Shown: piece by piece, positions 32,929 through 52,750 of the stretch
How positions within the stretch are numbered: the stretch's first letter is position 1
Layout: every line of letters starts with the position of its first letter
Source of the DNA: a virus
Taxonomy: Duplodnaviria > Caudoviricetes
Length of the DNA stretch: 64,000 nucleotides
Strand: one strand, 5' to 3'
Virus record (IMG/VR): IMGVR_UViG_3300032237_000764
Location: 1 to 64,000 of that record
Program-made: the position numbers and the translations under genes
The notes under the pieces: model-generated
What the model was told of the DNA's origin: nothing
Seen by the model: only the letters and a program-made list of their open reading frames with translations
Database searches by the model: none

Positions 32929-32950
32929 ACTTATTATACTAATAAAAATA

Positions 32951-32979
32951 TTGACAATTAAGATATCTAGCGTTAGAGT
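32951..32979 (+). promoter_or_regulatory. Sigma70-like promoter
   Basis: TTGACA-17-TAGAGT upstream of rfbH. Confidence 0.55.
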
Positions 32980-32991
32980 AAGAAATTTATT

Positions 32992-34293: not shown

Positions 34294-35098
34294 TTTATTT
34301 GGTGGCACCGGGTTCATAGGCAGTAATTTTAAACGATTATATGATAGTGAATCTCATATTCATCATCGTGAAAATGACTATCCATTAGAAGAAAACGTGT
34401 TGTATATGATTAGCACAACACACAACTATAATGTATTTAGCGATTTACATAAAGACGTTGATACCAATTTAACCAAACTGTTAAAGGTATTAGCTAAATG
34501 TAAAGATAAAAATATCACATTTAACTTTGTAAGTAGTTGGTTTGTTTATGGAGAATGTGCATTACCTGCATCCGAATCGGATTGCTGTAAACCAAAAGGA
34601 TTTTATAGTATTACAAAAAAATGTGCTGAAGATTTATTAATTAGTTATTGTGAAACATTTAATATTAAATATAGAATCTTGCGTCTTTGTAATGTTTATG
34701 GAAAAACTGACGATGGCGTGTCCAAGCAAAAGAATGCGTTGCAATATTTAATAAATGAACTTAAATTAAATCGAGATATTAAATTATATTATAATGGTAA
34801 TTTTATTAGAGATTATATGCATGTTGATGATATTTGTCGTGCAATTCATCTATGTATCACTAAAGCTGATACAAATCAGATCATTAATATTGGCAGCGGT
34901 ATACCTCAGCGATTTAGAGACGTGATTGATTTTGTTATATGCGAAACAAAATCAACTAGCAATATTATTCCTGTTGATGCCGTAGAATTCCATAAACTTG
35001 TCCAAGTCAAAGATATGTATTTAAATACAGAAAAACTAACTCAATTAGGGTTTAAACAAGAAATTAATATTTATACCGGTATAAAACAATTGTTATGA
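34283..35098 (+). CDS. NAD-dependent epimerase/reductase
   Basis: GGTGFIG, SSWFVYG, YSITK, RLCNVYG, RDYMHVDD. Confidence 0.85.
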   Translation: MKIDLFGGTGFIGSNFKRLYDSESHIHHRENDYPLEENVLYMISTTHNYNVFSDLHKDVDTNLTKLLKVLAKCKDKNITFNFVSSWFVYGECALPASESDCCKPKGFYSITKKCAEDLLISYCETFNIKYRILRLCNVYGKTDDGVSKQKNALQYLINELKLNRDIKLYYNGNFIRDYMHVDDICRAIHLCITKADTNQIINIGSGIPQRFRDVIDFVICETKSTSNIIPVDAVEFHKLVQVKDMYLNTEKLTQLGFKQEINIYTGIKQLL

Positions 35099-36060
35099 TT
35101 AATATATTAGTTACAGGTGGATGTGGATTTATAGGTTCTCATTTTGTTGAAGAACTGTTAAAAAGTTCAAACATTGGATGTATTGTCAATATTGATAAAA
35201 TGACATATGCAGCAAATAAAACATTACCGTTTCAATCGAATGAACATTATTTTTATCATAAAATGAATATAAATTCTTCATGCATATTAGAAATTTTAAA
35301 AGAAAAAAACATCAATTATATTGTTCATTTTGCGGCTGAAAGTCATGTAGACAACAGTATTGCAGACAGTGATCCGTTTATTAAAACTAATATTAATGGA
35401 ACACACAGTTTGTTAAAAACTTCATTAAATTATATTAATAAAGGTGGCAATTTAATTAAATTTATACACGTATCCACTGATGAAGTGTATGGTAGTTTAA
35501 ATTTTGATGATATACCTTTTACAGTTAATAGTCCATATCGTCCTAACAGTCCTTATGCAGCGAGCAAGGCTGCAAGTGATTTGCTGGTTCGTAGTTATGT
35601 TCATACACATAAATTTCCAGCCATTATTACCAATTGTAGCAATAACTTTGGTCCTCGTCAATTTTCTGAAAAGCTAATACCACTCTGTATTAAAAAATTA
35701 AAAAATAAACAATCGATACCCTTATATGGTAATGGAAAAAACATTCGCGATTGGATATACGTAAAAGATCATGTAAATGCATTGATACAAGTATTATTGA
35801 ACGGTAAAGTCGGTAGTCAGTATTTAATCGGTGGCGATAAAGAAATTTCTAATTATGAGTTAGTTCATATTTTAGGATATGAATATACCAATCTTACCTT
35901 TACTAATATTGATTGGCCACTGTTTAACTTTGTAGAAGATCGTAAAGGACACGATTTGCGTTATGCAATTGATACAGTAGAATTTAAAAAAGAGTTTCCT
36001 GATTGGAAACTCTCTTGCTTTTATGATAGTATCAAAAACACAGTAAAAAGCTATATTTAA
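35095..36060 (+). CDS. rmlB: dTDP-glucose 4,6-dehydratase
   Basis: VTGGCGFIG, HFAAESHVD, STDEVYG, SPYAASK, NNFGP, RDWIYV, GHDLRY. Confidence 0.95.
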   Translation: MINILVTGGCGFIGSHFVEELLKSSNIGCIVNIDKMTYAANKTLPFQSNEHYFYHKMNINSSCILEILKEKNINYIVHFAAESHVDNSIADSDPFIKTNINGTHSLLKTSLNYINKGGNLIKFIHVSTDEVYGSLNFDDIPFTVNSPYRPNSPYAASKAASDLLVRSYVHTHKFPAIITNCSNNFGPRQFSEKLIPLCIKKLKNKQSIPLYGNGKNIRDWIYVKDHVNALIQVLLNGKVGSQYLIGGDKEISNYELVHILGYEYTNLTFTNIDWPLFNFVEDRKGHDLRYAIDTVEFKKEFPDWKLSCFYDSIKNTVKSYI

Positions 36061-37208
36061 TTTTTAACTATTATTAAATTTTTTTCGTATGTTTTTAAAG
36101 ATTTAATTGTAAATTTAAATATATCAAATTCCATATTTCCAATTTCTCCAGAATCTTTTAAAATTTTAGAAAGATTATAAATAATTTGTATATTATTATT
36201 ATTCAACATATTTCCGTCAAATTCAATTAATATATTATTTATCTTTTCATCATTTAAAGTTTTTACTCTGTTTTTTAAATTAAACGACGTGAGGTGTTGA
36301 TTATTATTAATATAATTTTTAATATCACAATCTACATATATATTTGAACACCAGTATTCTAATATATTCAATAGCTGCGGATTACAATTATTAATAATTA
36401 ATCCGATATCATACTTTGAATTTATGATAGGATAGCTGTATTCATCATTTTCTATCCAAGATCCCCATTTTCTAATATAATTTTTATAATTTTTATCACA
36501 ACATTTTTTATAAAAATCATCATCTTTTTGTATTTTTTCTGTCCATCGATGTCCTCTACATGTCAAGTGATATACAAATGAATCTCGACTTTGAATTATA
36601 TTATAATCATTTAAAATAAATCTTTGAAATATATCACTGTCTTCATATGGAAATGGCGCAAACATTAAATCATGACCGCCAATTTCAATAAAGTCTTTTT
36701 TATACATAACCCAAGGTGCAAAAATTCCTTTGGTTGTAGTGTCGCATGACGATTTTTGTTCTGATATACAAAAGTCTTCAAATTCTTGTATTTTTAAATC
36801 ATCATGCTCCAATCCAAAATTTTTAATAATTTTTTCTTTTCCGGCAGGATGTAAAGGGGGTTCTATACGAGTAGCAGAAACCACAGTTTTATCTTTTAGA
36901 TGTTTCAATAAATTTTCTACATAATATGGACCGCATATCATATCTGCATGAAATATTGAAAAAATATCATGCTTACACATTTCAACTCCAATGTTATATA
37001 AAACTGTGTGTCCCACCGAACCGTTTTTATTAAAATATTTTGTCAAATTATTGTCTGACAGGTTACTTAACCAATCTACAGTACCGTCGGTTGAACAGTC
37101 ATCTAAAACTATAATTTCATGACTTTTATAATATTTTCTGATACTAGTATATGCATTTTTTAAATATTTTATATTATTTTTAGATGGTATTATAAAACTG
37201 ATATTCAT
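36057..37208 (-). CDS. Glycosyltransferase family 2
   Basis: ISFIIP, IIVLDDCSTDGT, HAD, GGHD, EDSD. Confidence 0.85.
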   Translation of the reverse strand: MNISFIIPSKNNIKYLKNAYTSIRKYYKSHEIIVLDDCSTDGTVDWLSNLSDNNLTKYFNKNGSVGHTVLYNIGVEMCKHDIFSIFHADMICGPYYVENLLKHLKDKTVVSATRIEPPLHPAGKEKIIKNFGLEHDDLKIQEFEDFCISEQKSSCDTTTKGIFAPWVMYKKDFIEIGGHDLMFAPFPYEDSDIFQRFILNDYNIIQSRDSFVYHLTCRGHRWTEKIQKDDDFYKKCCDKNYKNYIRKWGSWIENDEYSYPIINSKYDIGLIINNCNPQLLNILEYWCSNIYVDCDIKNYINNNQHLTSFNLKNRVKTLNDEKINNILIEFDGNMLNNNNIQIIYNLSKILKDSGEIGNMEFDIFKFTIKSLKTYEKNLIIVKN

Positions 37209-37212
37209 AATT

Positions 37213-38067
37213 TTATTTTGGCAAACATAATAAATTTACAAGTTCTCCCGAAATAGTGTCATTTATACTATTTATTTTTTTCATTTTATTTGGATTTCCA
37301 AAACCAGAATTGTCGCGCCCTATGTCATAGATATCATAATTGATCGAATGTATCGTATGCAGGAGATCATTTACTTCTGAGGGTGTAGAGCCTGAATAAA
37401 GTTCCGCCATTAAAATTGGTTTAACTGTGTTAATAATTGAATATATAGTTTTAATTATTTCTTTATCATGACCTTCCGCATCAATTTTAATTAATTTAAT
37501 ATTTGAAATATCATCTTTATGATTTTCATTTAAGAAATTATTTAAATTAACAGCGTATACATCTATTGGTTTGACATGTCCGGTTACACCCACTCCTTTT
37601 TCACATCCTAATGCAAACCCACCATTACAAAGACCATCATCGGAATAATGAAATTCTAAAACTTCATTATTATGTGAACATGCTAAGTTATACGGTACAA
37701 TATTTTTGTAAATTTCACCATTTTTATTTAAAATTTCAAATGCTGCTGGATTTGGTTCAAATGATATAACTTTTCCTGCAAATTTTGCAAATGCCACTGA
37801 TAATATCCCCGCTTGCGCACCTATATCTAATACTACACTATTTTTTAATAGTGTTTGATTTAAATAATCTAAAATGTTATTGGTAAACATTTCGGTATAT
37901 TCCCAATCTCCTTGATATGGATGCGTCCATTTATAATAATCAATATTATATTTATTGTTTGGTGTAGAATATGTTACTAGTTTCGGCTCATAACGATTTT
38001 TATTTTTAGATAAAATATCTAAAAATTCTTTTCTATATTCATCTGTATGTTCTATTATTTTATTCAT
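37213..38067 (-). CDS. FkbM-family methyltransferase
   Basis: VLDIGAQAG, SFEPNP, LIKIDAEG. Confidence 0.88.
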   Translation of the reverse strand: MNKIIEHTDEYRKEFLDILSKNKNRYEPKLVTYSTPNNKYNIDYYKWTHPYQGDWEYTEMFTNNILDYLNQTLLKNSVVLDIGAQAGILSVAFAKFAGKVISFEPNPAAFEILNKNGEIYKNIVPYNLACSHNNEVLEFHYSDDGLCNGGFALGCEKGVGVTGHVKPIDVYAVNLNNFLNENHKDDISNIKLIKIDAEGHDKEIIKTIYSIINTVKPILMAELYSGSTPSEVNDLLHTIHSINYDIYDIGRDNSGFGNPNKMKKINSINDTISGELVNLLCLPK

Positions 38068-38942
38068 ATTCTATTATTAAATTTTAAAATTTCTTCGTCG
38101 AAATATTTCTCTGCGTTTGTTCTAAACTCTTTTTGTCGGTTTATTAAACTCAAATAATTTTTATAAATATTATTTCTGTATTTATTATTTTCAGTAACTA
38201 TTATATTTTCTAAAACATATTGACTAATATCATATTTTTTATTTTTCATTAATTGACAACAGATCATTACAAAATAGTCATCTAGACCATATGGTCCAAA
38301 TGAGTCTGGTATATCAATCAATTTTATTAATTTTGATGATAATAGATTAAACCATCCGCCTCCAAATTTAAATTCATTTATTTTTTTTAATTGAATTGAA
38401 TCTTCATTATGTTTACTCATCAATTGATATGGATCGGTTGAATTATAATCTGATAGACTAGGATGTTTATTTACATAATTTTTATTCGTAATCACATCCC
38501 ATGTATTATCCCACAACTTTATTATTTCTGGTGAAATAATATAATATTCGGAATCTACAAAACTTGCGCCTGAAATAATGTATTTAAGAGTCTCATGTTT
38601 AAAGATTAAATCTGAATCTAAATAAAGAATATTGTCTGCGGTTGTATTTCTGACACAATCTCGTCGACTGTCATTACAACCAACAAAAATATTTTTATCA
38701 TCTATCTTTACTATTTTTTCACACCAATCCCATAATAATAATATATTATTAAATTTTTCTATAAAAAATTCTTTTGGTATTATTGATTTTTCCCAAACTA
38801 CTAAATTTAAATTTAGTGTTACATCAAGTATTATTTTATCTGATTTTTCTAAAAAATTACTACCTATCTTAATTTGTTTGGATTGCCAATCAAACCAATC
38901 TAATTCATAAGGCATTAGGTGTACAACTATTTGAGTATTCAT
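38064..38942 (-). CDS. Putative GT-A fold glycosyltransferase
   Basis: YLDSD (DxD), PYGLDD; island context. Confidence 0.55.
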   Translation of the reverse strand: MNTQIVVHLMPYELDWFDWQSKQIKIGSNFLEKSDKIILDVTLNLNLVVWEKSIIPKEFFIEKFNNILLLWDWCEKIVKIDDKNIFVGCNDSRRDCVRNTTADNILYLDSDLIFKHETLKYIISGASFVDSEYYIISPEIIKLWDNTWDVITNKNYVNKHPSLSDYNSTDPYQLMSKHNEDSIQLKKINEFKFGGGWFNLLSSKLIKLIDIPDSFGPYGLDDYFVMICCQLMKNKKYDISQYVLENIIVTENNKYRNNIYKNYLSLINRQKEFRTNAEKYFDEEILKFNNRI

Positions 38943-39895
38943 TTTGGTATTATAGTAGCAACATCAGGCCATTTTCCATATTTTTGGACGACTTTACTTT
39001 TATAGAAATCGTTTTTTCTATCATATTCTTGAAATTCTTTAATACATTCTTCGTATGAAAAGAAATTGCCTTCTCTATCCATATAAGTATATGTTGGATA
39101 TATGTTATATCCCATATTCCAATAACCATCGCTTACGTTATGTCTGAGCATGTATTTTGGAGCAATAATAGTCTTTAGAGTTTCACTTGTCAATGATGGA
39201 ATTAAAGAAAAACTAGAATTTGATGCAATCAAATACTTTGCATTTTTGATAATGGCATAATCTTCGCCTATACCAAAATGATAAATATTCTCACTTAATT
39301 CTGGTAATAATTGTCGAGTTGAATTTACATCTTCGGTAATGACTAAAAAATTCATGTTCGGATTTATTTTTAACATATAATTTATAGCATTTAACCAATA
39401 TGTTCTTGGTAAATAAATCCAAGGATCAAAATTAGCTCTTACATTTATTATACAAATATCATCTTTACTAAAATTTTTATTATCATATTCTGGTTTTAAT
39501 TTCAGCCACTGTTTAATTTTATCTATGTGATGATAAAAGTAATCCGGACCCTGCATATATCCTAATATATGACTGTTATCAGGTATATTTTTTAAAATAG
39601 GATCTGTTATCCAAACACCACATCCTTCGTTATAATCTTGATAATTATTTTGAGTAAAGTATCTATATTCCTTTTCCATATAGTAATTTTGTATTTTACT
39701 TTCATCGACTTTTCCTCCCATGTCTAAATCGATAAAATACATTCCTTTAGTATTATATCTTTTATCTCCTAAACAATTGTTTGGATCATGAATACCAAAT
39801 TCACAACCTCTATCCAAAGCAATCGCTCTGGTTGAAATATAACAAAATAATTGGTTTCCCAATCCTTGACCATATAGCATTTCTGTTGATATCAT
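38939..39895 (-). CDS. GT11-like glycosyltransferase
   Basis: GQGLGNQLF, GYMQ, INVR, IASNSSFS, IIAPK. Confidence 0.75.
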   Translation of the reverse strand: MISTEMLYGQGLGNQLFCYISTRAIALDRGCEFGIHDPNNCLGDKRYNTKGMYFIDLDMGGKVDESKIQNYYMEKEYRYFTQNNYQDYNEGCGVWITDPILKNIPDNSHILGYMQGPDYFYHHIDKIKQWLKLKPEYDNKNFSKDDICIINVRANFDPWIYLPRTYWLNAINYMLKINPNMNFLVITEDVNSTRQLLPELSENIYHFGIGEDYAIIKNAKYLIASNSSFSLIPSLTSETLKTIIAPKYMLRHNVSDGYWNMGYNIYPTYTYMDREGNFFSYEECIKEFQEYDRKNDFYKSKVVQKYGKWPDVATIIPK

Positions 39896-39936
39896 AAATT
39901 TAATTTTTTATTAAAAATACTATTCCGAATGACAAA

Positions 39937-40860
39937 TTATTTAATCATATGTTTATATTTATCTAAATTATTAATTAAATACGATGGATACGTATCATCA
40001 ATTTTTACTTTTGTCAATCTATCTCCATTAAAAATTACATCTTTTAAATTATTAAAATTATATTCTATTTTTGATAGCAATTTTTCATTGTCAAATGATT
40101 GACAATCTCCAGATGATAATTTTGTTTTTATTGAGTCTACACCACCCATATAACTAAAATGCCATCCTCCATTCAGTATATCATTATTTGGCTGTGCTCT
40201 TAATTCATTATAAGAATAATTTTTTAATTTTTTATAACTTCCCATTCTAGAACCTTTCCAATTAGAGGATTTAATACCAGTATAGGGTTCTGCGCCGGGA
40301 TAATCATGAATAACATTATTAATATGCGATTCTCTTAATACATTTAAATAATAATAATAACAGGTTTGATTGAACGAATAAAATTCATTTTCATCATAAA
40401 ACTCCGAAAGTCTTGTTAATATTTTCGGATTAGGAATTTCATCACAGTCAGATGATATTATCACGTCATCGTCTTCACAATTTTCCATACATCTTCTTAT
40501 AGATTCCTTGATAAAAAAACTTCTACCAAATCTTGGTTCTGTGAATCTATTAAAACGTTCTGACGACTTAATAAATGAAAATATTTGATTCAAACAAATA
40601 TTATCAAAAGAAGTTTCTTCATAATGTGGTAAATTAATAAATTCATCTGGAAGATCATTTATAACTTTATGAATTATTTTGGGCAAAAATTTAGAAAATC
40701 TATCTTTATTTTTTAGAAATAAAGATTCTTTCTTTTCTCCTGACATTGTTTTTGTCCCCTCAATTAATATAAAATGGTCAACAACTGAATTTAAAATATT
40801 AAGTCTGATTTCTAAAACATCTAATTCGTTAAAAAATGTAAAGCAGTCATAAATTTTCAT
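39937..40860 (-). CDS. GT17-like glycosyltransferase
   Basis: YDCFTFFNELDVLEIRL, SDCDEIP, GGWHFSY. Confidence 0.85.
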   Translation of the reverse strand: MKIYDCFTFFNELDVLEIRLNILNSVVDHFILIEGTKTMSGEKKESLFLKNKDRFSKFLPKIIHKVINDLPDEFINLPHYEETSFDNICLNQIFSFIKSSERFNRFTEPRFGRSFFIKESIRRCMENCEDDDVIISSDCDEIPNPKILTRLSEFYDENEFYSFNQTCYYYYLNVLRESHINNVIHDYPGAEPYTGIKSSNWKGSRMGSYKKLKNYSYNELRAQPNNDILNGGWHFSYMGGVDSIKTKLSSGDCQSFDNEKLLSKIEYNFNNLKDVIFNGDRLTKVKIDDTYPSYLINNLDKYKHMIK

Positions 40861-40958: not shown

Positions 40959-41921
40959 ATGAAAAAAATTTTTGTAACAGGAGCGGCCGGATTTATAGGA
41001 AGTAATTTAATTGATAGACTTTTATTATTAGGATATCGCGTTATAGGATGGGATAATTTCTCAACTGGTAAATTAAAATTTCTAGAAAAATCATTAAAAA
41101 ATACCAATTTTGAATTGATTGAAGGTGATAATCTCAATTTGAATCACTTAACATCCTCCATGAAAGCATGCGAGGTAGTATTTCATCTTGCAGCAAATGC
41201 AGATGTTCGATTTGGATTGAATCATCCATCCAAAGATTTGAATCAAAATACAATAGCAACATTCAATGTATTACAAGCCATGAATGCTAATGGTATCAAG
41301 CGTATTATATTCAGTTCAACTGGAAGTGTTTATGGAGAAACAACTGTAATTCCTACACCAGAAAATGTAGGATTTCCCATTCAAACGTCTTTATATGGAG
41401 CATCTAAAGTAGCATGTGAAACCTTGATTCAAGCTTATTCAGAGGGTTACGGATTTGAATCTTATATCTTTAGATTTGTATCTATTCTTGGTGAACGATA
41501 TACACACGGTCATATTTTTGATTTTTATAAACAATTAATTGATCATCCCGATTATTTGAATGTACTTGGCGATGGTACACAGCGAAAGAGTTATTTATAT
41601 GTTCAAGATTGCATTGATGCGATGCTGCATGTTTTGTCGGTACCTAAACAAAATAACGTAAATATTTATAATCTCGGCACCGATGAATATGTCCAAGTAA
41701 ATGATTCTATAAAATTTATTATAGATCATTTAGGAGTTTCTCCATTAATACAATATTCTGGCGGCAAAAAAGGATGGATCGGTGATAATCCATGTATCTT
41801 TTTAGATACAACGAAAGTTCGAAATACAGGATGGCAACCAAAATTAACAATTGAACAAGGTGTGATTTCTACAGTTAAATGGTTACAACAAAATCAATGG
41901 GTATATGAAAACAATAAATAA
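40959..41921 (+). CDS. NAD-dependent NDP-sugar epimerase (LmbM-like candidate)
   Basis: VTGAAGFIG, FHLAAN, SSTGSVYG, YGASK. Confidence 0.88.
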   Translation: MKKIFVTGAAGFIGSNLIDRLLLLGYRVIGWDNFSTGKLKFLEKSLKNTNFELIEGDNLNLNHLTSSMKACEVVFHLAANADVRFGLNHPSKDLNQNTIATFNVLQAMNANGIKRIIFSSTGSVYGETTVIPTPENVGFPIQTSLYGASKVACETLIQAYSEGYGFESYIFRFVSILGERYTHGHIFDFYKQLIDHPDYLNVLGDGTQRKSYLYVQDCIDAMLHVLSVPKQNNVNIYNLGTDEYVQVNDSIKFIIDHLGVSPLIQYSGGKKGWIGDNPCIFLDTTKVRNTGWQPKLTIEQGVISTVKWLQQNQWVYENNK

Positions 41922-43173
41922 ACTAGCAATATTTGGATTATGGCATTTGGGAAGTGTTATATCGACGTGTTGTGCCAAGCATTTTAATGTGATGGCATAC
42001 GATCCATCATCTGAAGTAGTAGATAATTTAAATCTTGGAAACGCTCCTGTTTATGAGCCAGAATTAAACAATCAACTCAAAGCAGAAATCACACGAAATC
42101 GGGTACAGTTCACAAATAATTTGTCGATTGCATGTAATCATGCAGATGTGTTTTGGATCACATATGATACACCAGTTGACGAAAATGATTTGGCAGACAA
42201 TACGTTTATCTATGAACGAATAGCTGAGATATGCAAGTTAAAACAATCAGCGGCAACAATCATTATTTCTTCTCAAATTGTTGCAACCACATGTGCAAAA
42301 TTAGAAAGAGATTTTTCGCAACATACATTTGTATATATTCCTGAAAATTTAAGATTGGGAAAAGGTATTGAAACCTTTGAAAATGCGGAGCGTTTTATTG
42401 TTGGATGTAGAAATAAAGATATAAACAAGTTAAAAGAATTGCTTGCACCATTTAACATTGAATTGGTTTTTATGAAATCGGAATCTGCTGAAATGGTTAA
42501 ACATACAATCAATTCATTTTTGGCATTGTCTGTTACTTTTATTAATGAAATCGCAACAATATGTGAGCAAATTGACGCTGACGCACATGAAGTTTCTATT
42601 GGTGTTAAAAGTGATAAAAGAATTGGTAAAAGCGCATATTTGAAGCCGGGCGAACCATTTGCAGGAGGCACATTAGCTAGAGATGTAGTTTCACTGGACA
42701 CGCTTCATAAATATTTTCAAGTCAAATCACCGATACTATCTTCAATAATAGAAAGCAATGAAAATCATAAAAATTGGTATTTAAATCAATTAAATGCAAT
42801 TCCATATAATAAATGTAAGAGTATATTATTTCTGGGACTTACCTATACGGAAAATACAAACACATTGCGTAGAAGCAATACATTAACATTATATAAAAAG
42901 TTAAATCGTCAAAATATTAAATTTTATGCATATGATAGTTTGGTAAAAACGCTACCAATTGAATTTGTTAATATTGAATTAATAAATAATATTGATGATC
43001 TTAATGTTGATATAGTTATTGTTTTTGGACATCAGAGTAGTTTTAAGTTATTGAATTATAATAAGTTACAACACAAAGATACTCTATATTTTATAGATGC
43101 AAATCGTTATCTGTATGAACAAGTAAAACAACTATCAAACGTTAAATATATAACGGTTGGATCTATTATTTAG
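41905..43173 (+). CDS. UDP-glucose/GDP-mannose dehydrogenase-family protein lacking the catalytic Cys (LmbL-like candidate)
   Basis: GLWHLG, DTP, PENLR, AEMVK..N.FLA..V.F.NE, DKRIG, GGTLARD. Confidence 0.8.
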   Translation: MKTINKLAIFGLWHLGSVISTCCAKHFNVMAYDPSSEVVDNLNLGNAPVYEPELNNQLKAEITRNRVQFTNNLSIACNHADVFWITYDTPVDENDLADNTFIYERIAEICKLKQSAATIIISSQIVATTCAKLERDFSQHTFVYIPENLRLGKGIETFENAERFIVGCRNKDINKLKELLAPFNIELVFMKSESAEMVKHTINSFLALSVTFINEIATICEQIDADAHEVSIGVKSDKRIGKSAYLKPGEPFAGGTLARDVVSLDTLHKYFQVKSPILSSIIESNENHKNWYLNQLNAIPYNKCKSILFLGLTYTENTNTLRRSNTLTLYKKLNRQNIKFYAYDSLVKTLPIEFVNIELINNIDDLNVDIVIVFGHQSSFKLLNYNKLQHKDTLYFIDANRYLYEQVKQLSNVKYITVGSII

Positions 43174-43175
43174 TT

Positions 43176-44018
43176 ATGAATGTTATTATAACAGGTGCAA
43201 GTCAAGGATTTGGTAGTAGTATAGCCGAGAAGTTCTTGAAAGAGGGAGCAAATATATCCATTTGTGGACGAGATGAACAGCAATTGGCAGAACGACTGGC
43301 TTCATTAAAACAAACATACAAATCCAAAATTATTGGATATTCATGTGATGTTTCTAAAGAATACCAAGTTAAAACATTCATCGATAAATCTATTGAAGAA
43401 TTACAAACAATAGATGCTATTGTTTTAAATGCGGGAATTTATGGTCCTATGGGGCCAATTGAATCTGTTGATTTTGATGCGTTTAAATATGCATTAGAAG
43501 TTAATTTATATGGTGTAGTATTGCCGTGTAAATATATCGTGCCTCATTTTAAACAAAACAATTGTGGCAAGATTATAATGATTAGTGGTGGTGGAGCAAC
43601 AACACCAATGCCATATATTACAGGATATGCAGCAAGCAAAGCTGCTAGTATTCGATTCATGGAAAGTATTTCATTGGAGTTAAAATCCTTTAATATTGAT
43701 GTTAATGCAGTAGCACCGGGTGCATTGGCAACTCGTTTGGTTGATTCTGTATTGAATGCTGGACCTGAGTTAATAGGAAAAGAATTCTACGAAAAAAATC
43801 TAAAGTGGAAAAATGAAGGAGCAACTTCACCCGAATTGGGTGCAAATTTAGTTTGGTTTTTAGCTAATTATCATAGCGATAAAATCACTGGTAAATTAAT
43901 TAGTGCTCAATGGGATGATTGGAAAAATTTACCGTTACATTTAAAAGAATTGAACTCAAGTGATATATACTGTTTGAGAAGAATTGTACCCGAAGATAGA
44001 AATAAAAATTGGAATTGA
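43176..44018 (+). CDS. Short-chain dehydrogenase/reductase
   Basis: ITGASQGFG, LNAG, YAASK, VAPG. Confidence 0.88.
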   Translation: MNVIITGASQGFGSSIAEKFLKEGANISICGRDEQQLAERLASLKQTYKSKIIGYSCDVSKEYQVKTFIDKSIEELQTIDAIVLNAGIYGPMGPIESVDFDAFKYALEVNLYGVVLPCKYIVPHFKQNNCGKIIMISGGGATTPMPYITGYAASKAASIRFMESISLELKSFNIDVNAVAPGALATRLVDSVLNAGPELIGKEFYEKNLKWKNEGATSPELGANLVWFLANYHSDKITGKLISAQWDDWKNLPLHLKELNSSDIYCLRRIVPEDRNKNWN

Positions 44019-44019
44019 T

Positions 44020-44985
44020 ATGAAAATAGCAATTATAGGATGTGGATTAATTGGTCAAAAACGTGCAAAGTTACTTCAAAATGTTGATATTGCATGCGAT
44101 ATAAATTTAGAAAATGCCAAGAAAGTTGCTGGTTTGTTTTCGAATAGTATTGTAACAACTAATGTTGAAGACGTTGTTGCATCTGATGTGGATGTAGTAT
44201 TTATTTCCGTTGCCAATTCATCATTGGCTCCAATTGCGACACGACTGGCCAGAACTGGAAAACATGTATTATTGGAAAAACCGGGAGGTATTACTGCTGA
44301 TGAATTGATAAAACTAAAAGATATTAGTTTGAAGAATAATGCTTTGATTCGTATTGGTTATAATCATCGTTATCATCCTGCATGTTTAAAGGCATTAGAA
44401 TTGATAAAACAACCAGAGTTTGGTAATATTATGTTTGTACGTGGTCGTTATGGTCATGGTGGAAGAATTGGGTATGAAAAAGAATGGCGAGCAAATGTAT
44501 CTATATCAGGTGGAGGTGAATTAATAGATCAAGGAGTACATTTGATAGATTTGGCGAGTATTTTTATTGGAAAATTTAACACAATCGAAGGACATATACA
44601 TACATATTATTGGAACATGAATGTTGATGACAACGCATTTATAAGTCTACAAAATAAAAACAAAAACACAGCATGGTTACATGTCAGTTGTACCGAATGG
44701 AAAAATACATTCAGTTTTGAAATATATGGCACAAATGCAAAGTTACATTGGGAAGGTTTGGGTGGTAGTTATGGTGTTGAACGTTTAACACACTATCAAA
44801 TGTTACCACAAATGGGTCCACCACAAACTATAACATATGAATATCCAATGGGCGACAATTCATGGAAAATAGAAATGGATGAATTTTTTGAAGATATTCG
44901 ATTGCAACGTCAACCTATTCCCGGTTTGAATGAAGGAATTGAAACATTAAAAGTCGTCGATACATTATACAAACAAAAAATATGA
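44020..44985 (+). CDS. Gfo/Idh/MocA oxidoreductase (LmbZ-like candidate)
   Basis: IIGCGLIG, HVLLEKP, GYNHRY, GGGELIDQGVHLID. Confidence 0.88.
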   Translation: MKIAIIGCGLIGQKRAKLLQNVDIACDINLENAKKVAGLFSNSIVTTNVEDVVASDVDVVFISVANSSLAPIATRLARTGKHVLLEKPGGITADELIKLKDISLKNNALIRIGYNHRYHPACLKALELIKQPEFGNIMFVRGRYGHGGRIGYEKEWRANVSISGGGELIDQGVHLIDLASIFIGKFNTIEGHIHTYYWNMNVDDNAFISLQNKNKNTAWLHVSCTEWKNTFSFEIYGTNAKLHWEGLGGSYGVERLTHYQMLPQMGPPQTITYEYPMGDNSWKIEMDEFFEDIRLQRQPIPGLNEGIETLKVVDTLYKQKI

Positions 44986-45962
44986 TTATTGTAAGATCAC
45001 CATTACGTATTAGTTTAGGAGGAGGCGGAACTGATTTACCATCTTATTATGCAAAATTTGGTGGATACTTTATTTCGGCGGCAATCAACAAATATATTTA
45101 CATTACATTGAATGATAATTTTTCAGATCAATTAATTGTAAAATATTCAAAGATGGAAAAGGTAGACGATTCAAATAAAATTGAACATCCTATTTTACGT
45201 GAAGCATTTGCATTGACGCGAACCAAAGGAGTTGGATTAGAGTTGTGTTCAATGGCAGATATTCCGTCGGGCACAGGTTTAGGATCATCTAGTAGTTTTA
45301 CAGTTGCTGTATTAAAAGCTTTACATGTTTATAATCATAATATCATTAGTACACACACTTTGGCAGAACAAGCATGTGATATTGAAATCAATAGACTAAA
45401 AGAACCTATTGGAAAACAAGATCAATTTATATCAGCATATGGTGGTATTACAGAGTTTGATATTGATACCAATGGTAATATAAATGTAAACCCCATTCCA
45501 TTATCGAACGATACGGTAAATGATCTTAGTGAAAATTTACTATTGTTTTTTACTGGATATTCGCGTTCTGCATCTCATATTCTAAAAGAACAAGATCAAA
45601 AATCAAAAAATTCAGATGAGGAAATGTTCAAAAATTTACATTACGTAAAACAAATTGGTGTTCAAAGTTACAAAGCATTTACAAGTGGAAATTTAATTGA
45701 ATTTGCCAATTTAATGAATGAGCATTGGGAATATAAGAAAAGTCGTAGCAAAAACATGAGCAATGCGCATATTAATGCATGGTATGATTTGGCGTTAAAA
45801 AATGGCGCATTGGGTGGTAAACTTATAGGTGCTGGTGGTGGAGGATTTTTAATGTTTTATGCAGAAAACAAAAAAAATCTTCGTAGAGTTATGCGTGAAG
45901 CAGGATTAACGGAAGTTCATTTTACATTCGATTTTGAAGGAACAAAACAAATCTTAGCATGA
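44982..45962 (+). CDS. GHMP-family sugar-phosphate 1-kinase (HddA/LmbP-like)
   Basis: PLRISLGGGGTD, PSGTGLGSSS, GKQDQ, GGKLIGAGGGG. Confidence 0.9.
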   Translation: MIIVRSPLRISLGGGGTDLPSYYAKFGGYFISAAINKYIYITLNDNFSDQLIVKYSKMEKVDDSNKIEHPILREAFALTRTKGVGLELCSMADIPSGTGLGSSSSFTVAVLKALHVYNHNIISTHTLAEQACDIEINRLKEPIGKQDQFISAYGGITEFDIDTNGNINVNPIPLSNDTVNDLSENLLLFFTGYSRSASHILKEQDQKSKNSDEEMFKNLHYVKQIGVQSYKAFTSGNLIEFANLMNEHWEYKKSRSKNMSNAHINAWYDLALKNGALGGKLIGAGGGGFLMFYAENKKNLRRVMREAGLTEVHFTFDFEGTKQILA

Positions 45963-46651
45963 GTAATATACCATTTATTATATTAGCTGGCGGATTAGCT
46001 ACTAGATTAAAACCTATTACTAATACAATTCCAAAGGCATTGGTGCCTGTGGCTGGTAAACCGTTTATCTATCATCAGTTGGAATTACTAAATGAAAACG
46101 ATATCAATCATGTGGTGTTGTGTCTTGGTCATTTGGGAGAAATGGTAGAAAAAGAAGTTGGAAACAGTTATAAAAACATAAAAATTGATTATTCTTACGA
46201 CGGCGAAAAATTGCTTGGAACAGGTGGCGCAGTTAAAAAAGCAATCGAAAACGTTGATGATGTGTTTGGCGTTTTATATGGTGATTCTTATTTACCAATT
46301 ATTTATAAGCACGTAATTGATTATTATAATGTTTGTAAAAAACTAGGATTGATGACTGTCTATGCCAATGATAACAAATATGATACTAGTAATACTGTGT
46401 TTCAGCATAAACAAATATTAAAGTATAGTAAAACTGAAATTCTACCTGAAATGAATTATATTGATTATGGGTTTAGTATTTTGCATAAATCTGCATTTGA
46501 TTCATTCACTGATGCTTTTGATCTATCAAAAGCAATAATCCAGCTAATTGAACAAAATCAACTAGCTGGATATGAGGTTTATAACCGATTTTATGAAATT
46601 GGATCTTTTAAAGGTCTTTATGAATTGGAATCAAAGTTGCAATCCAGATGA
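45959..46651 (+). CDS. Sugar-1-phosphate nucleotidyltransferase (HddC/LmbO-like)
   Basis: ILAGGLATRL, PKAL, LGTGGA, YGDSY, FYEIG. Confidence 0.88.
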   Translation: MSNIPFIILAGGLATRLKPITNTIPKALVPVAGKPFIYHQLELLNENDINHVVLCLGHLGEMVEKEVGNSYKNIKIDYSYDGEKLLGTGGAVKKAIENVDDVFGVLYGDSYLPIIYKHVIDYYNVCKKLGLMTVYANDNKYDTSNTVFQHKQILKYSKTEILPEMNYIDYGFSILHKSAFDSFTDAFDLSKAIIQLIEQNQLAGYEVYNRFYEIGSFKGLYELESKLQSR

Positions 46652-47332
46652 TTTGGCATCAGTATAAAACATTTGAACTGTCTCAATTGTATACTCGGTT
46701 AGATTTTTATTCTGTAATGATAGTTTTTTGATTTGATCTGGCGTAACTGTAATAATATCACAACCTATACGATCAGCTTCATAAATATTATATACTTCTC
46801 TGGTACTTGCCCATAATATTTCACATTGATCTTTTAATAAAGCTTGCGCTAAGTTAATCGTACAAATAGGATTTCTACCCGTGTCTGCAATGCGTCCGGC
46901 AAAAATAGATACTATGTTTGTTTTATTCGGTGCAGATGGTAAATGATCTTTTAATAATAATAGTTGATCAAGTGTAAACACCGCAGTTACGTTGACTTTG
47001 ACATTGTTTTCATTCAGTTTGTATATCAGATCATGTGTACTTTCTCCCAATGTATTAACAATAGGAATTTTAACATGAATGTTTTCACCAAAAGAAGCAA
47101 TTTTTTGTGCTTGATATAACATTCCGTGATAATCGTCTGCAAAAACCTCAAATGAGATTGATAAATCTTTAATTTTTGAAGTTACTTCTTTAATAAATTT
47201 TTCATAATTAGTAACACCGGCTTTTTTCATCAAACTAGGATTTGTTGTAAATCCTTTTACTAATTTGTTGTTTTCATATAAATCAAATATTTCATTGATA
47301 TTTGATCCGTCTGCAAATATTTTAATATTCAT
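46631..47332 (-). CDS. tal: Transaldolase (small TalC/FSA type; LmbR-like candidate)
   Basis: FADG, TTNPSL, VKIP (Schiff-base Lys), NVTAVF, SIFAGRIAD, LWASTR. Confidence 0.88.
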   Translation of the reverse strand: MNIKIFADGSNINEIFDLYENNKLVKGFTTNPSLMKKAGVTNYEKFIKEVTSKIKDLSISFEVFADDYHGMLYQAQKIASFGENIHVKIPIVNTLGESTHDLIYKLNENNVKVNVTAVFTLDQLLLLKDHLPSAPNKTNIVSIFAGRIADTGRNPICTINLAQALLKDQCEILWASTREVYNIYEADRIGCDIITVTPDQIKKLSLQNKNLTEYTIETVQMFYTDAKSSGLQL

Positions 47333-48224
47333 AAGACAATCCATTAACTATTAAGTGCAATACAATTCCTTGCCATTCTTCTGCATGTGGTGTAACTCTA
47401 CTATTATCCACAACAGGTATTAGTAAGCATACATCCGACAATTCTTTAGCTTTGCCACCCCCACGACTAACAACAGATAATATGGTTCCTTTACAAGATT
47501 TTGTATATTCCATCGCTTTAACTAAATTTTGTGAAGTTGTATTGCTACCTCCACCCACACTAAACACCAATAAAATATCATTTGCGTTTAATTTTGATGT
47601 TTTAAGCCATTCTGAATAGCAAGTGTCCCAGCCAACATCATTGATTCTGGCAGTTAGCTCAGCAACATTTTCAGAAATAGAATATGTTTCAATGTTACAG
47701 ATTTTTCTAAAATCGTTCACAGCATGCGCTGCATTAGCAGCACTGCCACCTACACCGGCCATAAAAATTCTACCATTTTGTTGCTGGCATTTTTTAATAG
47801 TAGATAACAACAAATTTAAATCTTTTTGATTGATAAGATCTGCGATTTGTTTTACTTCGGATAAATATTGTTGAATATAAGCAGCGGCATTCATAATTGG
47901 TATTTTTATATTATTTTGTTCTCTCCATGTTTGTGCGTTTATGGCTTTATCATCGATAAATAGATCAAAATGTGGTTTATTTTTATCAATCAATTCATGA
48001 TATTTGACTCCCCAGTTATTGAGTTGGGAAAGATTCAATTCGTGATAGTCAATTTTAGAAGTTCCGCCTCTTGCTGTATATATGATAATTTTATTACCAG
48101 TATCATACAATTCGTTTATTTTATTCACTACTTCTTGATAAGGATACGCATCCTTATAATTTTTACCGATGGTATGGCAGATTGTATTATCTAAATCAAA
48201 ACAATAAGTAATAATATTTTTCAT
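47322..48224 (-). CDS. Fusion of HAD phosphatase and SIS/GmhA-like phosphosugar isomerase
   Basis: N-terminal FDLDNTIC, YTAR, KP, FIDDKA; C-terminal GVGGSAANAAHAVND, TARIND, SVGGG, HAEEWQ. Confidence 0.85.
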   Translation of the reverse strand: MKNIITYCFDLDNTICHTIGKNYKDAYPYQEVVNKINELYDTGNKIIIYTARGGTSKIDYHELNLSQLNNWGVKYHELIDKNKPHFDLFIDDKAINAQTWREQNNIKIPIMNAAAYIQQYLSEVKQIADLINQKDLNLLLSTIKKCQQQNGRIFMAGVGGSAANAAHAVNDFRKICNIETYSISENVAELTARINDVGWDTCYSEWLKTSKLNANDILLVFSVGGGSNTTSQNLVKAMEYTKSCKGTILSVVSRGGGKAKELSDVCLLIPVVDNSRVTPHAEEWQGIVLHLIVNGLSYEY

Positions 48225-48225
48225 A

Positions 48226-48924
48226 TTAACTAATTTTATAATCTTTTGCCGCCGTATATTTTTTTTCTTTTTCTTCTATTTCTTTTGTAATAGAAGAACT
48301 TGTTTGATCTTCATGAATTCTATTGACCACTGTTATATAATTACATATACTTGGCAAACCGAATCTATCATATAATCTTTTATAATAATCAACATCCATT
48401 AACCAACATAAATTTTCATCAAATTCAATGACATTTTCATTTTTAAACATTAATACACTCGGCGAACTTATTGTATTTTCTCCATGTTGAATATTATCAT
48501 GATATTTTGGATAGTGTTCATTAAAAAAATGAACCGAATTCTTAGTATGACAACAAGCTGTGACTAACCAATGATTTGAATTGCTTAATATATGAAATAG
48601 TTGCAGTTCTAAACTTTGCGTTCCAAATAAAAAATCATCTTGATACAATATTTTTATAAAATCTCCGTTTGCTTTTTTTATTGCAAAATTAGTATTTTGC
48701 GACATTCCATATTTTTCTCGATTTCTAAAATATTTTATATTCAATCTATCATTCCATTTTTTACATAAATTTTCTATTTCATCATTTTTACTATTATCTG
48801 ATATAATAATATTAAAATTTTTATATGTTTGTGAATGTAGTATGTTAAATGAATAATTTAAATATCCTACCCCACTTCCATTCATTTCATATGTTGGGAT
48901 ACATATACTAATTAGAGAATTCAT
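48226..48924 (-). CDS. Glycosyltransferase family 2
   Basis: ISICIPTY, IIISDNS, YQDD, MDVDYY. Confidence 0.85.
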   Translation of the reverse strand: MNSLISICIPTYEMNGSGVGYLNYSFNILHSQTYKNFNIIISDNSKNDEIENLCKKWNDRLNIKYFRNREKYGMSQNTNFAIKKANGDFIKILYQDDFLFGTQSLELQLFHILSNSNHWLVTACCHTKNSVHFFNEHYPKYHDNIQHGENTISSPSVLMFKNENVIEFDENLCWLMDVDYYKRLYDRFGLPSICNYITVVNRIHEDQTSSSITKEIEEKEKKYTAAKDYKIS

Positions 48925-49573
48925 AAGTTATAAATCTTTTATCAAAAATATACGGTTCTAATCTTTCTACAATCCACGGCATTCTTTCGTGGGTTTCTAA
49001 TAATTCTACTAGTTTACAATAAAATTGTTTGCTTCTAATATGTACCGTTTCTTTGGAAACACAAAAATGTCCACCGGGAATAAATTCATATTCATTTGGA
49101 GTTTTTGACTTAAATAAAACATTCCAAATCTCATTGATATTTAAATTTTTTTCATGGGGATAACCATTACTACTACAGGCTAACACATTTCCAGAAAAAA
49201 ATTGTTGTGATTTATGTAAATTCCACATAGTTCCTATCGAATTCCAATGATATCCTTTATAACCATCAAATTTTAAACTTGCATAATTGTTTCTATATTC
49301 TTCGTTGCCATTAATTAATTCGATGTAATTTTCAACATGGTCAAAAGGATAATCTTGAGAGAAAAATATTGTATCGGACAATTCATCATAATTTTTATAT
49401 AAATGATTGAAAAAAGTATGAACGTCTCTACCAACATTGTTTTCTAATAAAATTTCTTTAGGATGTGTTGTTAAATTACCTTTTCTATAAATTATAATTT
49501 TAACATCTGAATTTATTTTTGAAATCCAAGAAATGTTTTTATCATAAAGCGATATTATTAATTCTGTGTTCAT
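48908..49573 (-). CDS. DUF3431-like protein
   Basis: NVGRDVHTF..H..KNYDEL....FSQDYPFDH, ERL. Confidence 0.7.
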   Translation of the reverse strand: MNTELIISLYDKNISWISKINSDVKIIIYRKGNLTTHPKEILLENNVGRDVHTFFNHLYKNYDELSDTIFFSQDYPFDHVENYIELINGNEEYRNNYASLKFDGYKGYHWNSIGTMWNLHKSQQFFSGNVLACSSNGYPHEKNLNINEIWNVLFKSKTPNEYEFIPGGHFCVSKETVHIRSKQFYCKLVELLETHERMPWIVERLEPYIFDKRFITYEFSN

Positions 49574-50403
49574 ATTTGAATCCATTCTGTTGGAATTAAA
49601 TCTATGGTATTTAAATTATTAAATGATGGACCAAACCATTTTTTTGGTGCAATTACTATTTTCTCTGGATTTGGATTTAACCACGCCCCCCACCATCCAA
49701 ATGTACTATTTCCTATTATATTGTGTGTGCATAACGACATTATACACAAATCAACATAATGAGAATTTCCCTCTACATAATAAATTGATTTATTTTCTCC
49801 AAAAACATTTTTACACCAATCAATGTCATCCGAAAATATAAAATATTGATACTCTTTATTATCATAAACTTTATTTATGGCATTTTGATAGTAATCTACT
49901 TCCATTATAGGAAATTTATCTTGAATTCCGAGATAATCTCCTATTCTTACATGAATTGAAACAATATCTGTTTTTTTATTTTTATTTATTATTTCTAATG
50001 CTTTATTTTGAATTTCTTTTTTAAATTGTAATTTTTCTCTTACAATATTTGTAGCGTGTTTAAAATATTTCTCGCTTTGAAAGTATCCTTCCAAATTTGT
50101 ATTGTCTTTAATATTAAAGACATTTTTATCAAAATGAAAATGGGATTCTTTATAGGTATTTTCTAATGTCGCACCGTTATTATCTTTAATATCAATATCA
50201 AAACAATCAAATAAATCAAGTTTATAACTTATCCATTTGTTTGTAGACATATCTAAACAACCGTTTGGTTTAATATGTTTATTTTTTTCAATCGGTATTG
50301 ATGGAATAAAATTATTTTTATGGGCAACTCCAAATAAAGTAGCTATTTGAAATAATTGATTTCCTAATCTGCCGTCATATCCGATATTATTGATACTTAT
50401 CAT
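49570..50403 (-). CDS. GT11 alpha-1,2-fucosyltransferase-like
   Basis: GRLGNQLFQ, GYFQSEKYF, HVRIGDY, FSDD, NSTFGWWGAWL. Confidence 0.9.
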   Translation of the reverse strand: MISINNIGYDGRLGNQLFQIATLFGVAHKNNFIPSIPIEKNKHIKPNGCLDMSTNKWISYKLDLFDCFDIDIKDNNGATLENTYKESHFHFDKNVFNIKDNTNLEGYFQSEKYFKHATNIVREKLQFKKEIQNKALEIINKNKKTDIVSIHVRIGDYLGIQDKFPIMEVDYYQNAINKVYDNKEYQYFIFSDDIDWCKNVFGENKSIYYVEGNSHYVDLCIMSLCTHNIIGNSTFGWWGAWLNPNPEKIVIAPKKWFGPSFNNLNTIDLIPTEWIQI

Positions 50404-50442
50404 TTATTTTATATTATTTTTTAATCTAATTTATAATTTTTA

Positions 50443-51111
50443 TTATAAGCTAAATCCTAAATTTTCTTCGATTGTAAAAAGTTTATTATACTTTAAATTT
50501 GTTTCAACTTGTTTTTCAATAGTTTTATTGTGATGTAATGCAAAGTCAAAAGAAGCTGGTAAATATGTAAATGATTTAGCACCTTCAATTTTTTCATGCA
50601 ATCGTCGTCCCCATCTAAGATGGGGTAGATTTTTAAACAATCTACCCTGTGGATCTGGCCAATTTACGATTGATCGATTTTCATAATTTGTTAATCGCCA
50701 ACCCCATCGATTTGCAATTTCGGGTGTAACGCCTTTAAAATCATTTATACGAGGAATCCAAAACAATTCTATGGATTCATTTGCTATGATGATTTCATAT
50801 AAATTACTTAATAATATTTCAGATGGTAATTCATCTGAATCTATTTGAAATATATATTTTCCTTTACATAACGCTTTACCATAGTTTTTGTGTGCGCTGT
50901 AGTTATTATCTAATTTATGTTGATGAATAGATACACCATCTGTTGTTTTATAACTGTTTAAATAATTTATTGTAACATCATCAGTGGAAAAATCATCAAT
51001 TACTACGATTTCATTATTTTTATTGTATTTCAACAATAGATCGATTAATTGTTTAAATTGATCGCCCTCGTTTTTACACGTTACTAAATAACTAACAAAT
51101 GAGGTTTCCAT
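50443..51111 (-). CDS. Glycosyltransferase family 2
   Basis: KNE, IDDFSTD, QIDSDE, WPD, LHE. Confidence 0.85.
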   Translation of the reverse strand: METSFVSYLVTCKNEGDQFKQLIDLLLKYNKNNEIVVIDDFSTDDVTINYLNSYKTTDGVSIHQHKLDNNYSAHKNYGKALCKGKYIFQIDSDELPSEILLSNLYEIIIANESIELFWIPRINDFKGVTPEIANRWGWRLTNYENRSIVNWPDPQGRLFKNLPHLRWGRRLHEKIEGAKSFTYLPASFDFALHHNKTIEKQVETNLKYNKLFTIEENLGFSL

Positions 51112-52427: not shown

Positions 52428-52750
52428 AGGTTATTTTCCTTTTCTTTCATTAAATCACTATATTTCTTTTCTGAAGTATACACAGGATTTTTCTTATAAT
52501 TTTTAATCATATCAACCAATGTTTCTTCTGGAACAATTGGAGTATTGCCTGACTCATCATTGACATTAAAATTTAAATTTGTAAATTTTAATTTTGCTTC
52601 CAATATTTTTTCTTTATTTTTAATAGTTTCATATATTATTATTTTACTATCATTTAATATACCAGAATTTAATATACTATTAACTGTGAGAAATTCCCAC
52701 AGTTCAATTATTAAATTATAATTTCCAGAAACATATATTTTATTTTTCAT
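52424..52750 (-). CDS. Hypothetical protein
   Basis: 108 aa ORF overlapping both neighbours. Confidence 0.5.
   Translation of the reverse strand: MKNKIYVSGNYNLIIELWEFLTVNSILNSGILNDSKIIIYETIKNKEKILEAKLKFTNLNFNVNDESGNTPIVPEETLVDMIKNYKKNPVYTSEKKYSDLMKEKENNL

Follow-up and report, generated by a model that had tools for sequence, protein, structure and literature searches.

The DNA analysed here, hereafter called the window, is a 64,000-nt stretch from a Caudoviricetes phage (positions 1 to 64,000 of the IMG/VR record IMGVR_UViG_3300032237_000764). At 40959-48224 it carries a cassette of eight intact open reading frames (ORFs): a nucleoside diphosphate (NDP)-sugar epimerase, a UDP-glucose dehydrogenase (UGDH)-like protein, a classical short-chain dehydrogenase/reductase (SDR), a Gfo/Idh/MocA oxidoreductase, a GHMP kinase, a nucleotidyltransferase, a short transaldolase, and a HAD-SIS fusion protein (Table 1). 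The initial annotation had proposed eight contiguous sugar genes of these families, and all eight of them were recovered in the ORF listing and the Pfam and NCBIfam scans. The genes from the epimerase to the nucleotidyltransferase form a unit on the plus strand, on which the HAD-SIS and transaldolase genes converge from the minus strand. Neighbouring genes overlap by 4-23 nt; the overlap of the transaldolase and HAD-SIS genes amounts to 23 nt, and the two convergent units share 21 nt at their 3' ends. The cofactor and catalytic motifs of the SDRs, the Gfo enzyme, the kinase, the nucleotidyltransferase, the HAD and SIS domains, and the transaldolase are intact. The cassette very probably encodes a pathway that is primed by the transaldolase and leads to an NDP-linked higher sugar, whichever chain length that sugar may have.

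Table 1 Features of the window and occurrence of the cassette genes in bacteria. The window proteins were compared by tblastn with the loci of the best 80 of at least 577 bacterial species genomes; short flanks of these loci explain many of the gaps in occurrence.
Feature	Position	Strand	Basis	Loci with homologue	Identity
Extended-SDR NDP-sugar epimerase, LmbM-class	40959..41921	+	Pfam PF01370, E 1e-47	77/80	64-72% (59-72% over all loci)
Cys-less UGDH-like protein	41905..43173	+	three UDPG_MGDP_dh domains (Pfam)		
Classical SDR	43176..44018	+	adh_short, E 8e-48	74/80	about 55%
Gfo/Idh/MocA NAD(P) oxidoreductase, LmbZ-class	43984..44985	+	Pfam PF01408, PF02894, PF22725	60/80	50-63%
GHMP sugar-phosphate 1-kinase, HddA/LmbP-class	44982..45962	+	GHMP kinase family	48/80	60-68%
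Sugar-1-phosphate nucleotidyltransferase, HddC/LmbO-class	45959..46651	+	PF00483 (NTP_transferase)	43/80	about 50-55%
Short transaldolase	46631..47344	-	TAL_FSA; TIGR02134	29/80	41-47% (33-52% over all loci)
HAD-SIS fusion	47322..48224	-	SIS_2 (Pfam); HAD motif FDLDNT	38/80 (SIS)	about 44% (SIS)
Second nucleotide-sugar pathway: RmlA, RmlD-like reductase, RfbH-like 3-dehydrase, SDR, RmlB	31226..36060	+	NCBIfam, Pfam		
Divergent upstream block: GT2, FkbM methyltransferase, ORF without assigned function, PHROG glycosyltransferase, GT17-like	36057..40860	-	Pfam, PHROGs		
Downstream block on the strand of the transaldolase: GT2, DUF3431, GT11 (fucosyltransferase-like), GT2	48226..51111	-	Pfam		

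The type of the transaldolase was examined with family models, active-site residues, and a tree. The phage enzyme scored 287.2 bits against TIGR02134 ('transald_staph'; cut-off, 281.95), and the transaldolases of related bacterial cassettes scored 305-337 bits on the same model. Against TIGR00875, the model of TalC and Fsa, the phage enzyme reached 93.7 bits and fell short of the cut-off of 245.95. The Schiff-base Lys, the Asp, Glu, and Thr residues, and the phosphate-binding Arg residues of the T. acidophilum transaldolase are kept, and the Phe marking transaldolases rather than Fsa aldolases is present. In the maximum-likelihood tree, the phage transaldolases formed a clade of their own, which adjoins a clade of the Staphylococcus enzyme and the Verrucomicrobiota cassette enzymes; cyanophage TalC was placed as a remote outgroup. 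The matches in the ESM Atlas were generic 'Transaldolase' clusters, with Actinomycetota as the commonest source.

These results bear on the possibility that the gene serves general pentose-phosphate metabolism as an auxiliary metabolic gene, as cyanophage talC does, and lies beside the sugar genes by accident. Both are short TAL_FSA-family enzymes of T4-like phages, talC is common in T4-like cyanophages, and the transaldolase of the window matches PHROG 440 'transaldolase'. However, its identity to cyanophage TalC is just 32-37%, and TalC stands alone, whereas the phage transaldolase belongs to a different NCBI family, lies on a distant branch, and sits in a sugar-nucleotide operon in which it overlaps the SIS gene. 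Indeed, a SIS gene and a GHMP kinase gene adjoin the transaldolase or lie near it in all phage contexts examined (L001, L005, L009, L012, L139, and L141), and likewise in the bacterial ones. We therefore regard an accidental talC-like gene as very improbable.

In bacteria, the transaldolase was found in the same company. Each of five carrier genomes contained exactly one short transaldolase, encoded at the cassette or close to it, and, in another place, a long transaldolase of the housekeeping type. Since the housekeeping enzyme is also present in these bacteria, the cassette copy is a dedicated one. In a phylum sample of 151 genomes, the short transaldolase occurred in 13; the Cys-less UGDH-like gene (at least 370 bits) was present in eight of these, always 2-7 kb from the short transaldolase, and in none of the genomes of the sample that lack it. 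In all of the eight loci examined, among them the five that lack the UGDH-like gene, genes for SIS, a kinase, and a transferase lay within about 3 kb of the transaldolase. As the linkage holds in loci with and without the UGDH-like gene, the functional unit consists of the transaldolase, isomerase, kinase, phosphatase, and transferase, accompanied by a variable tailoring set. These five functions are adjacent in the window, and their linkage is kept in phages and bacteria. The proposal that the transaldolase is tied to sugar activation and is not a stray metabolic gene was thus upheld.

Among phages, the transaldolase is represented by more than 120 cluster representatives of at least 56% identity, and every context that was looked up was phage-like. 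A neighbourhood consisting of PolB, a PD-(D/E)XK nuclease, GT4, dUTPase, and the cassette is kept in independent phage assemblies from several samples, over which the transaldolase identity declines from 91% to 69% (85% for L005-L006, 77% for L001-L004, and 69% for L009-L011). The glycosyltransferases flanking the cassette vary between these phages, and the HAD and SIS parts are two separate genes in one of them (L009). The recurrence of the set, with its order kept, in related phage contigs of other samples and in bacterial loci shows that the arrangement is not due to chance. More distant aquatic phages (58-64% identity) carry a short module at L012:6698-11312, L139:8433-12311, and L141:6163-10670, which is composed of SIS, transaldolase, and GHMP kinase genes, a fusion of an EcbF/BcbF-like phosphatase with an RfaE-domain-II-like transferase, and an epimerase. 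The combination of a GHMP kinase with an RfaE-domain-II-like nucleotidyltransferase in this module is an unusual pairing.

A search of GenBank phages at the DNA level gave just three short matches of 140-160 nt, and the Cys-less UGDH-like gene was found in none of 50,697 GenBank phage records, the best match being ordinary UGDHs at 30% identity. A profile scan of IMG/VR for the UGDH-like protein returned 26 distant or partial relatives with at most 42% identity over the best segment, a number that is not a measure of spread. The only close transaldolase matches in the GenBank phage records were host-like and came from two 'Staphylococcus phage' entries (L100; OR844993.1, 1798-2496, and MG543995.1), one of which is flagged UNVERIFIED_ORG. 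Both contain an unannotated transaldolase of the Staphylococcus type, which probably stems from chromosomal DNA of the host that entered the assembly.

Subsequently, the cassette was compared with bacterial loci. In a scan of 185,579 species genomes, the Cys-less UGDH-like subfamily was detected in at least 577, and the best 80, which were mostly from Verrucomicrobiota and did not include Streptomyces, were used for the comparison of loci. In these 80 loci the cassette is colinear with that of the window, and the protein identities range over 41-72%. For example, an O-antigen-type locus with Wzy, a flippase, and a WecA-like protein (L016) contains the epimerase, a UGDH-like::SDR fusion, Gfo, GHMP kinase, transferase, SIS, HAD, and transaldolase genes; gene set and order are those of the window, transaldolase included. 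A complete cassette was also found on the Rhizobium jaguaris chromid pRCCGE525c (L138, NZ_CP032695.1), and another cassette on plasmid 3 of Lawsonia intracellularis (L137, NC_008014.1, 14573-22924), where RefSeq gives the genes generic names such as transaldolase, nucleotide sugar dehydrogenase, and galactokinase. In the Lawsonia stretch examined, the epimerase was not found, and a membrane protein annotated with a lysylphosphatidylglycerol-synthase domain is inserted after the transaldolase. Several metagenome-assembled genomes of 4-7.5 Mb titled 'uncultured Bifidobacterium/Bifidobacteriaceae' (L028, L036, L037, L040, and similar ones) also carry cassette transaldolases; because these are nested inside the Verrucomicrobiota clade, the titles look like mislabels.

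The shared genes, gene order, and Cys-less UGDH-like motifs indicate that the phage cassette is a copy of a widespread bacterial surface-glycan cassette and not a phage invention. The phage copy differs from the bacterial one in several respects. Its carrier is a virus, recoding has given it a low GC content, its transaldolase-SIS pair is inverted and converges on the other genes, and no Wzx, Wzy, ABC export, or other membrane protein lies near it. Furthermore, the GmhB-like HAD-IIIA phosphatase of the bacterial cassette is replaced by an EcbF/BcbF-like HAD domain that is fused to the SIS domain. Given that the nearest non-phage homologues are bacterial surface-glycan loci, the cassette might be bacterial DNA that reached the phage contig through mis-assembly or binning of host sequences. 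However, phage replication genes flank it on both sides of one contig, and the same junctions occur in assemblies that were obtained independently from several samples and sources. In addition, the GC content of the cassette (0.316) resembles the value for the remainder of the window (0.325) and not that of the bacterial homologues (0.55-0.58), and the phage transaldolases form a clade of their own. An assembly artefact is accordingly hardly credible. The analysis shows the enzyme families with their intact motifs, the bacterial origin of the cassette, and a tight linkage of transaldolase and activation genes that is retained in phages as well as in bacteria.

The tailoring enzymes were next compared with known families. 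The epimerase contains the motifs GAAGFIGS and YGASK, and the TDE triad of dehydratases is not present at the catalytic position; its best NCBIfam match was GalE with 150 bits, under the cut-off. In the UGDH-like protein, 'GLWHLG' stands where the GxGxxG loop for NAD is expected and 'GGTLARD' where GGxCxPKD is expected, so that neither hallmark of UDP-glucose 6-dehydrogenases was found. Alignment to the UGDH 4a7p showed that the catalytic Cys is replaced by Leu and the Lys by Arg, and the protein cleared just the broad subfamily model TIGR03026 (226 bits; cut-off, 190). A true UDP-glucose dehydrogenase was ruled out on these grounds: the loss of the Cys and the degenerate NAD loop argue against ordinary uronic acid synthesis. 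Both aberrant motifs are common to all of the best 150 members in a HMMER search of 1.8 billion cluster representatives, in which the motifs were read. They define a very large subfamily in which 'G[LM]WHLG' and 'GGTLARD' are invariant, the catalytic Cys is missing, and a Trp lies within the glycine-rich NAD loop. The only name returned for the ten representatives with the highest GC content was 'UDPglucose 6-dehydrogenase', which is probably wrong for members of this subfamily. A walk from the member with the highest GC content found no named LmbL.

Fusions of the UGDH-like protein with a classical SDR exist in both orders (P0129, P0132, P0170, P0261, and P0269), and such Rosetta-stone fusions indicate that the two proteins work together. 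The fusion partner was the classical SDR and not the Gfo enzyme. The SDR of the window has the motifs TGxxxGxG, NAG, and YxxxK, and the Gfo/Idh/MocA oxidoreductase has the EKP motif; the true start of the latter is probably the ATG at 44020 (MKIAIIGCGLIG).

The activation enzymes have the motifs of their families but are distant from the curated heptose enzymes. The kinase, with the motif PSGTGLGSSSS, scored 180.7 bits against the HddA model NF049969 (cut-off, 600). The nucleotidyltransferase, with the motif 'LAGGLATRL', scored 94.6 bits against MurU and 90.2 against HddC (NF049965; cut-off, 300), both far under the cut-offs. In the fusion protein, residues 106-300 form a GmhA-like ketose-aldose isomerase domain, which gained 53.9 bits on the gmhA model TIGR00441 (cut-off, 209.45). 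Its site is largely kept relative to GmhA structures (E 1e-10), with His, Asp for Glu, Glu for Gln, and His. Residues 1-105 form a small phosphatase with 'FDLDNT' as the DxDxT motif. This part scored 24.5 bits against the HAD-IIIA domain model (cut-off, 44.6) and is thus not of the GmhB type; its best relatives are the EcbF/BcbF capsule phosphatase family (TIGR01689, 28.5 bits) and PDB 9iqw (E 2e-13).

The characterised pathway with which the cassette can be compared is that of the lincosamide sugar, which comprises a transaldolase (R), an isomerase (N), a kinase (P), a phosphatase (K), a nucleotidyltransferase (O), an epimerase (M), a dehydrogenase (L), and an NAD(P) oxidoreductase (Z) (PMC4351081, PMC12945683). 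In S. lincolnensis and S. caelestis, LmbR, N, P, K, and O lead to GDP-octose, from which LmbM, LmbL, LmbZ/CcbZ, and LmbS/CcbS form GDP-lincosamide. By class description, the phage cassette matches R, N, P, K, O, M, L, and Z one for one, in agreement with the view of the initial annotation that the lincomycin pathway uses the same families. The order Gfo-kinase-transferase of the tightly overlapping phage genes is that of lmbZ-P-O (PMC7014725). There are also differences. The phage cassette lacks an aminotransferase corresponding to LmbS/CcbS and has a classical SDR instead; no pyridoxal phosphate-dependent aminotransferase of this kind, which forms the 6-amino sugar in the lincosamide pathway, was found in the 96-kb record, in which the sole DegT-family gene is the RfbH-like one of the dTDP branch. 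The phage phosphatase, which is joined to the isomerase in one protein, comes from a different HAD subfamily, and the lincosamide genes sit in an antibiotic cluster, whereas the phage cassette sits in a glycan island with many glycosyltransferases. To our knowledge, the lincosamide pathway is the only characterised one with this enzyme set.

From these comparisons, we propose the following route, in which all reactions, as well as nucleotide, acceptor, and chain length, are inferred. The dedicated transaldolase would transfer a C3 unit from fructose-6-phosphate (or sedoheptulose-7-phosphate) to an aldose phosphate to form a higher ketose phosphate, which the SIS domain would isomerise to the aldose phosphate. 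The GHMP kinase would then phosphorylate C1, the HAD domain would remove the terminal phosphate, and the nucleotidyltransferase would form the NDP-sugar. The epimerase, the Cys-less UGDH-like protein together with the SDR as its partner, and the Gfo/Idh/MocA enzyme would tailor the NDP-sugar by oxidation and reduction, that is, by epimerisation and probably deoxygenation, and the soluble glycosyltransferases and methyltransferases of the island would consume the product during infection. An octose-type pathway, in which the acceptor would be ribose-5-phosphate as for LmbR, is in our estimate an even bet; a heptose is somewhat less probable as the product, and anything else improbable. The full reading, namely that the phage makes a neutral NDP-octose or deoxy-octose by LmbR-type chemistry and that its own soluble transferases attach this sugar to a phage or host target, is given a probability of roughly 0.4. 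The SDR may, as the initial annotation proposed, take the place of the aminotransferase LmbS, which would give an 8-deoxy-octose.

The same genes might instead constitute an NDP-heptose pathway with a private supply. In that case, the transaldolase would make extra sedoheptulose-7-phosphate from fructose-6-phosphate and erythrose-4-phosphate, the core enzymes would convert it to NDP-D-glycero-D-manno-heptose; the four oxidoreductases would then modify the heptose. The GDP-D-glycero-alpha-D-manno-heptose pathway (GmhA, HddA, GmhB, and HddC; known from Campylobacter, Burkholderia, Yersinia, and Aneurinibacillus glycans) shares four reaction types and folds with the cassette, and GmhA, HddA, and HddC are the named enzymes that its core enzymes match best. 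Several observations weigh against an octose and are consistent with a heptose. Among solved structures, the heptose kinases 3k85, 4usk, and 4n3o come nearest to the kinase (E 1e-43 to 1e-46), and structures of GmhA come nearest to the isomerase. The transaldolase has an ordinary catalytic set and shares its NCBI equivalog family with the presumed housekeeping enzyme of Staphylococcus. The RfaE-domain-II-like transferase of the short phage module, together with its epimerase with HldD similarity, also leans towards heptose, and a phage may profit from a raised level of sedoheptulose-7-phosphate in the infected cell. Moreover, the sister phages L001-L004 lack the UGDH-like gene and retain the Gfo enzyme and an SDR. 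Their transaldolases are 77% identical to that of the window, and these phages contradict the supposed requirement for an L/Z pair. The equation of the pair with phage genes is itself an assumption on our side: we take LmbL to be UGDH-like and LmbZ to be a Gfo/Idh/MocA enzyme, which the papers call just 'dehydrogenase' and 'NAD(P)-dependent oxidoreductase'.

On the other hand, the bit scores fell short of all three heptose equivalog cut-offs by a factor of 3-4 (GmhA, 54/209; HddA, 181/600; HddC, 90/300), and the phage HAD domain is not of the GmhB type. The carrier bacteria keep a second transaldolase locked to the cassette besides the housekeeping one; a pathway fed by sedoheptulose-7-phosphate needs no such operon-locked enzyme where the cell already has one, which favours an octose. 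We know of no studied GDP-heptose locus with a dedicated transaldolase or with a tailoring set of UGDH-like, SDR, and Gfo enzymes, and the literature search found nothing on a transaldolase in heptose loci or on GDP-octose outside the lincosamides. Furthermore, the sole characterised pathway with such an enzyme set yields an octose. Of the two groupings that the initial annotation had named as evidence against an octose, that with TalC is absent. That with heptose enzymes is absent in the equivalog scores, but it finds some support in the structures nearest to the kinase. A privately supplied heptose pathway is a serious possibility, although its chance lies below even.

Consistent with the initial annotation, to which no description in a virus was known, none was found in the GenBank phage records or in the literature, and the literature search gave no account of the cassette in bacteria either. 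In a paper on pelagimyophages, rfaE, UGDH, and glycosyltransferases are given as auxiliary genes, not this cassette. New here are the viral carrier, the replacement of the phosphatase by another HAD subfamily fused to the SIS domain, and the membrane-free glycan island. If the octose-type pathway is correct, it would be the first route to an octose known from a virus, and likewise the first to lie outside antibiotic biosynthesis, and the higher-carbon chemistry now known just from lincosamides would be a common bacterial surface building block that viruses have borrowed. Whatever the chain length, the cassette suggests that a transaldolase can serve as the dedicated first enzyme of a glycan pathway; current annotation names such genes pentose-phosphate transaldolase, galactokinase, UDP-glucose dehydrogenase, and so on. 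The phage cassette is compact and low in GC, with short intact genes and no membrane proteins, and would be handy for reconstitution to learn the product of the bacterial cassette.

The carrier is a T4-like jumbo phage from a lake. On both flanks of the island lie genes for T4-like PolB, a clamp loader subunit, RecA, a DnaB-like helicase, class II ribonucleotide reductase, a 5'-3' exonuclease, UvdE, and homing endonucleases, and PolB shares 44% identity with its counterpart in Microcystis phage Mel-JY01. According to CheckV, the 96-kb record is 27% complete, and near relatives are found on contigs of up to 336 kb, from which the jumbo size follows. The island extends over 31.2-55.6 kb and contains two pathways for nucleotide sugars, about ten genes of the transferase type (GT2, GT4, GT11, GT17-like, DUF3431, and PHROG glycosyltransferases), and one FkbM methyltransferase gene. 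A simple Kyte-Doolittle scan detected hydrophobic, transmembrane-like segments in none of the 28 island proteins (31226-55623), and no flippase, polymerase, ABC exporter, or lipid-priming transferase was found in the island, unlike in the bacterial loci. The gene content of the island suggests a self-contained system for glycosylation in the cytoplasm. The lack of membrane and export genes may point to a soluble cytoplasmic target, such as virion proteins or conceivably DNA, or to the use of the host export machinery. About 24 kb of soluble glycan genes in a jumbo phage recall the self-contained glycosylation machinery of giant viruses and raise the question of whether the virion, the host envelope, or DNA is glycosylated.

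The second pathway of the island gave scores of 356 bits for rmlA, 374 for RfbH (cut-off, 423), and 348 for dTDP-glucose 4,6-dehydratase. These genes suggest that the phage may also make a dTDP-linked 3,6-dideoxyhexose or a related deoxyhexose; an E3-type reductase for this pathway was not seen in the window. The downstream transferase block represents the variable part of the island; the sister phages L001, L003, and L005 do not have it at this site. The GT17-like, GT11, and DUF3431 proteins (39937-40860 and 48908-50403) belong to mostly eukaryote-associated families and are here found in a phage. A gene similar to endonuclease VII/HNH lies inside the island at 52740-53432, and a NUMOD3 homing-endonuclease-like gene (58788-59579) lies directly before PolB; in the sister phage L005, a NUMOD3/Vsr gene occupies the matching island position. 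Finally, the ORF at 51114-52427 encodes a 437-aa protein with a weak match to a PHROG glycosyltransferase, and its counterparts of 434-439 aa adjoin the cassette in all sister phages (L001, L005, and L009).

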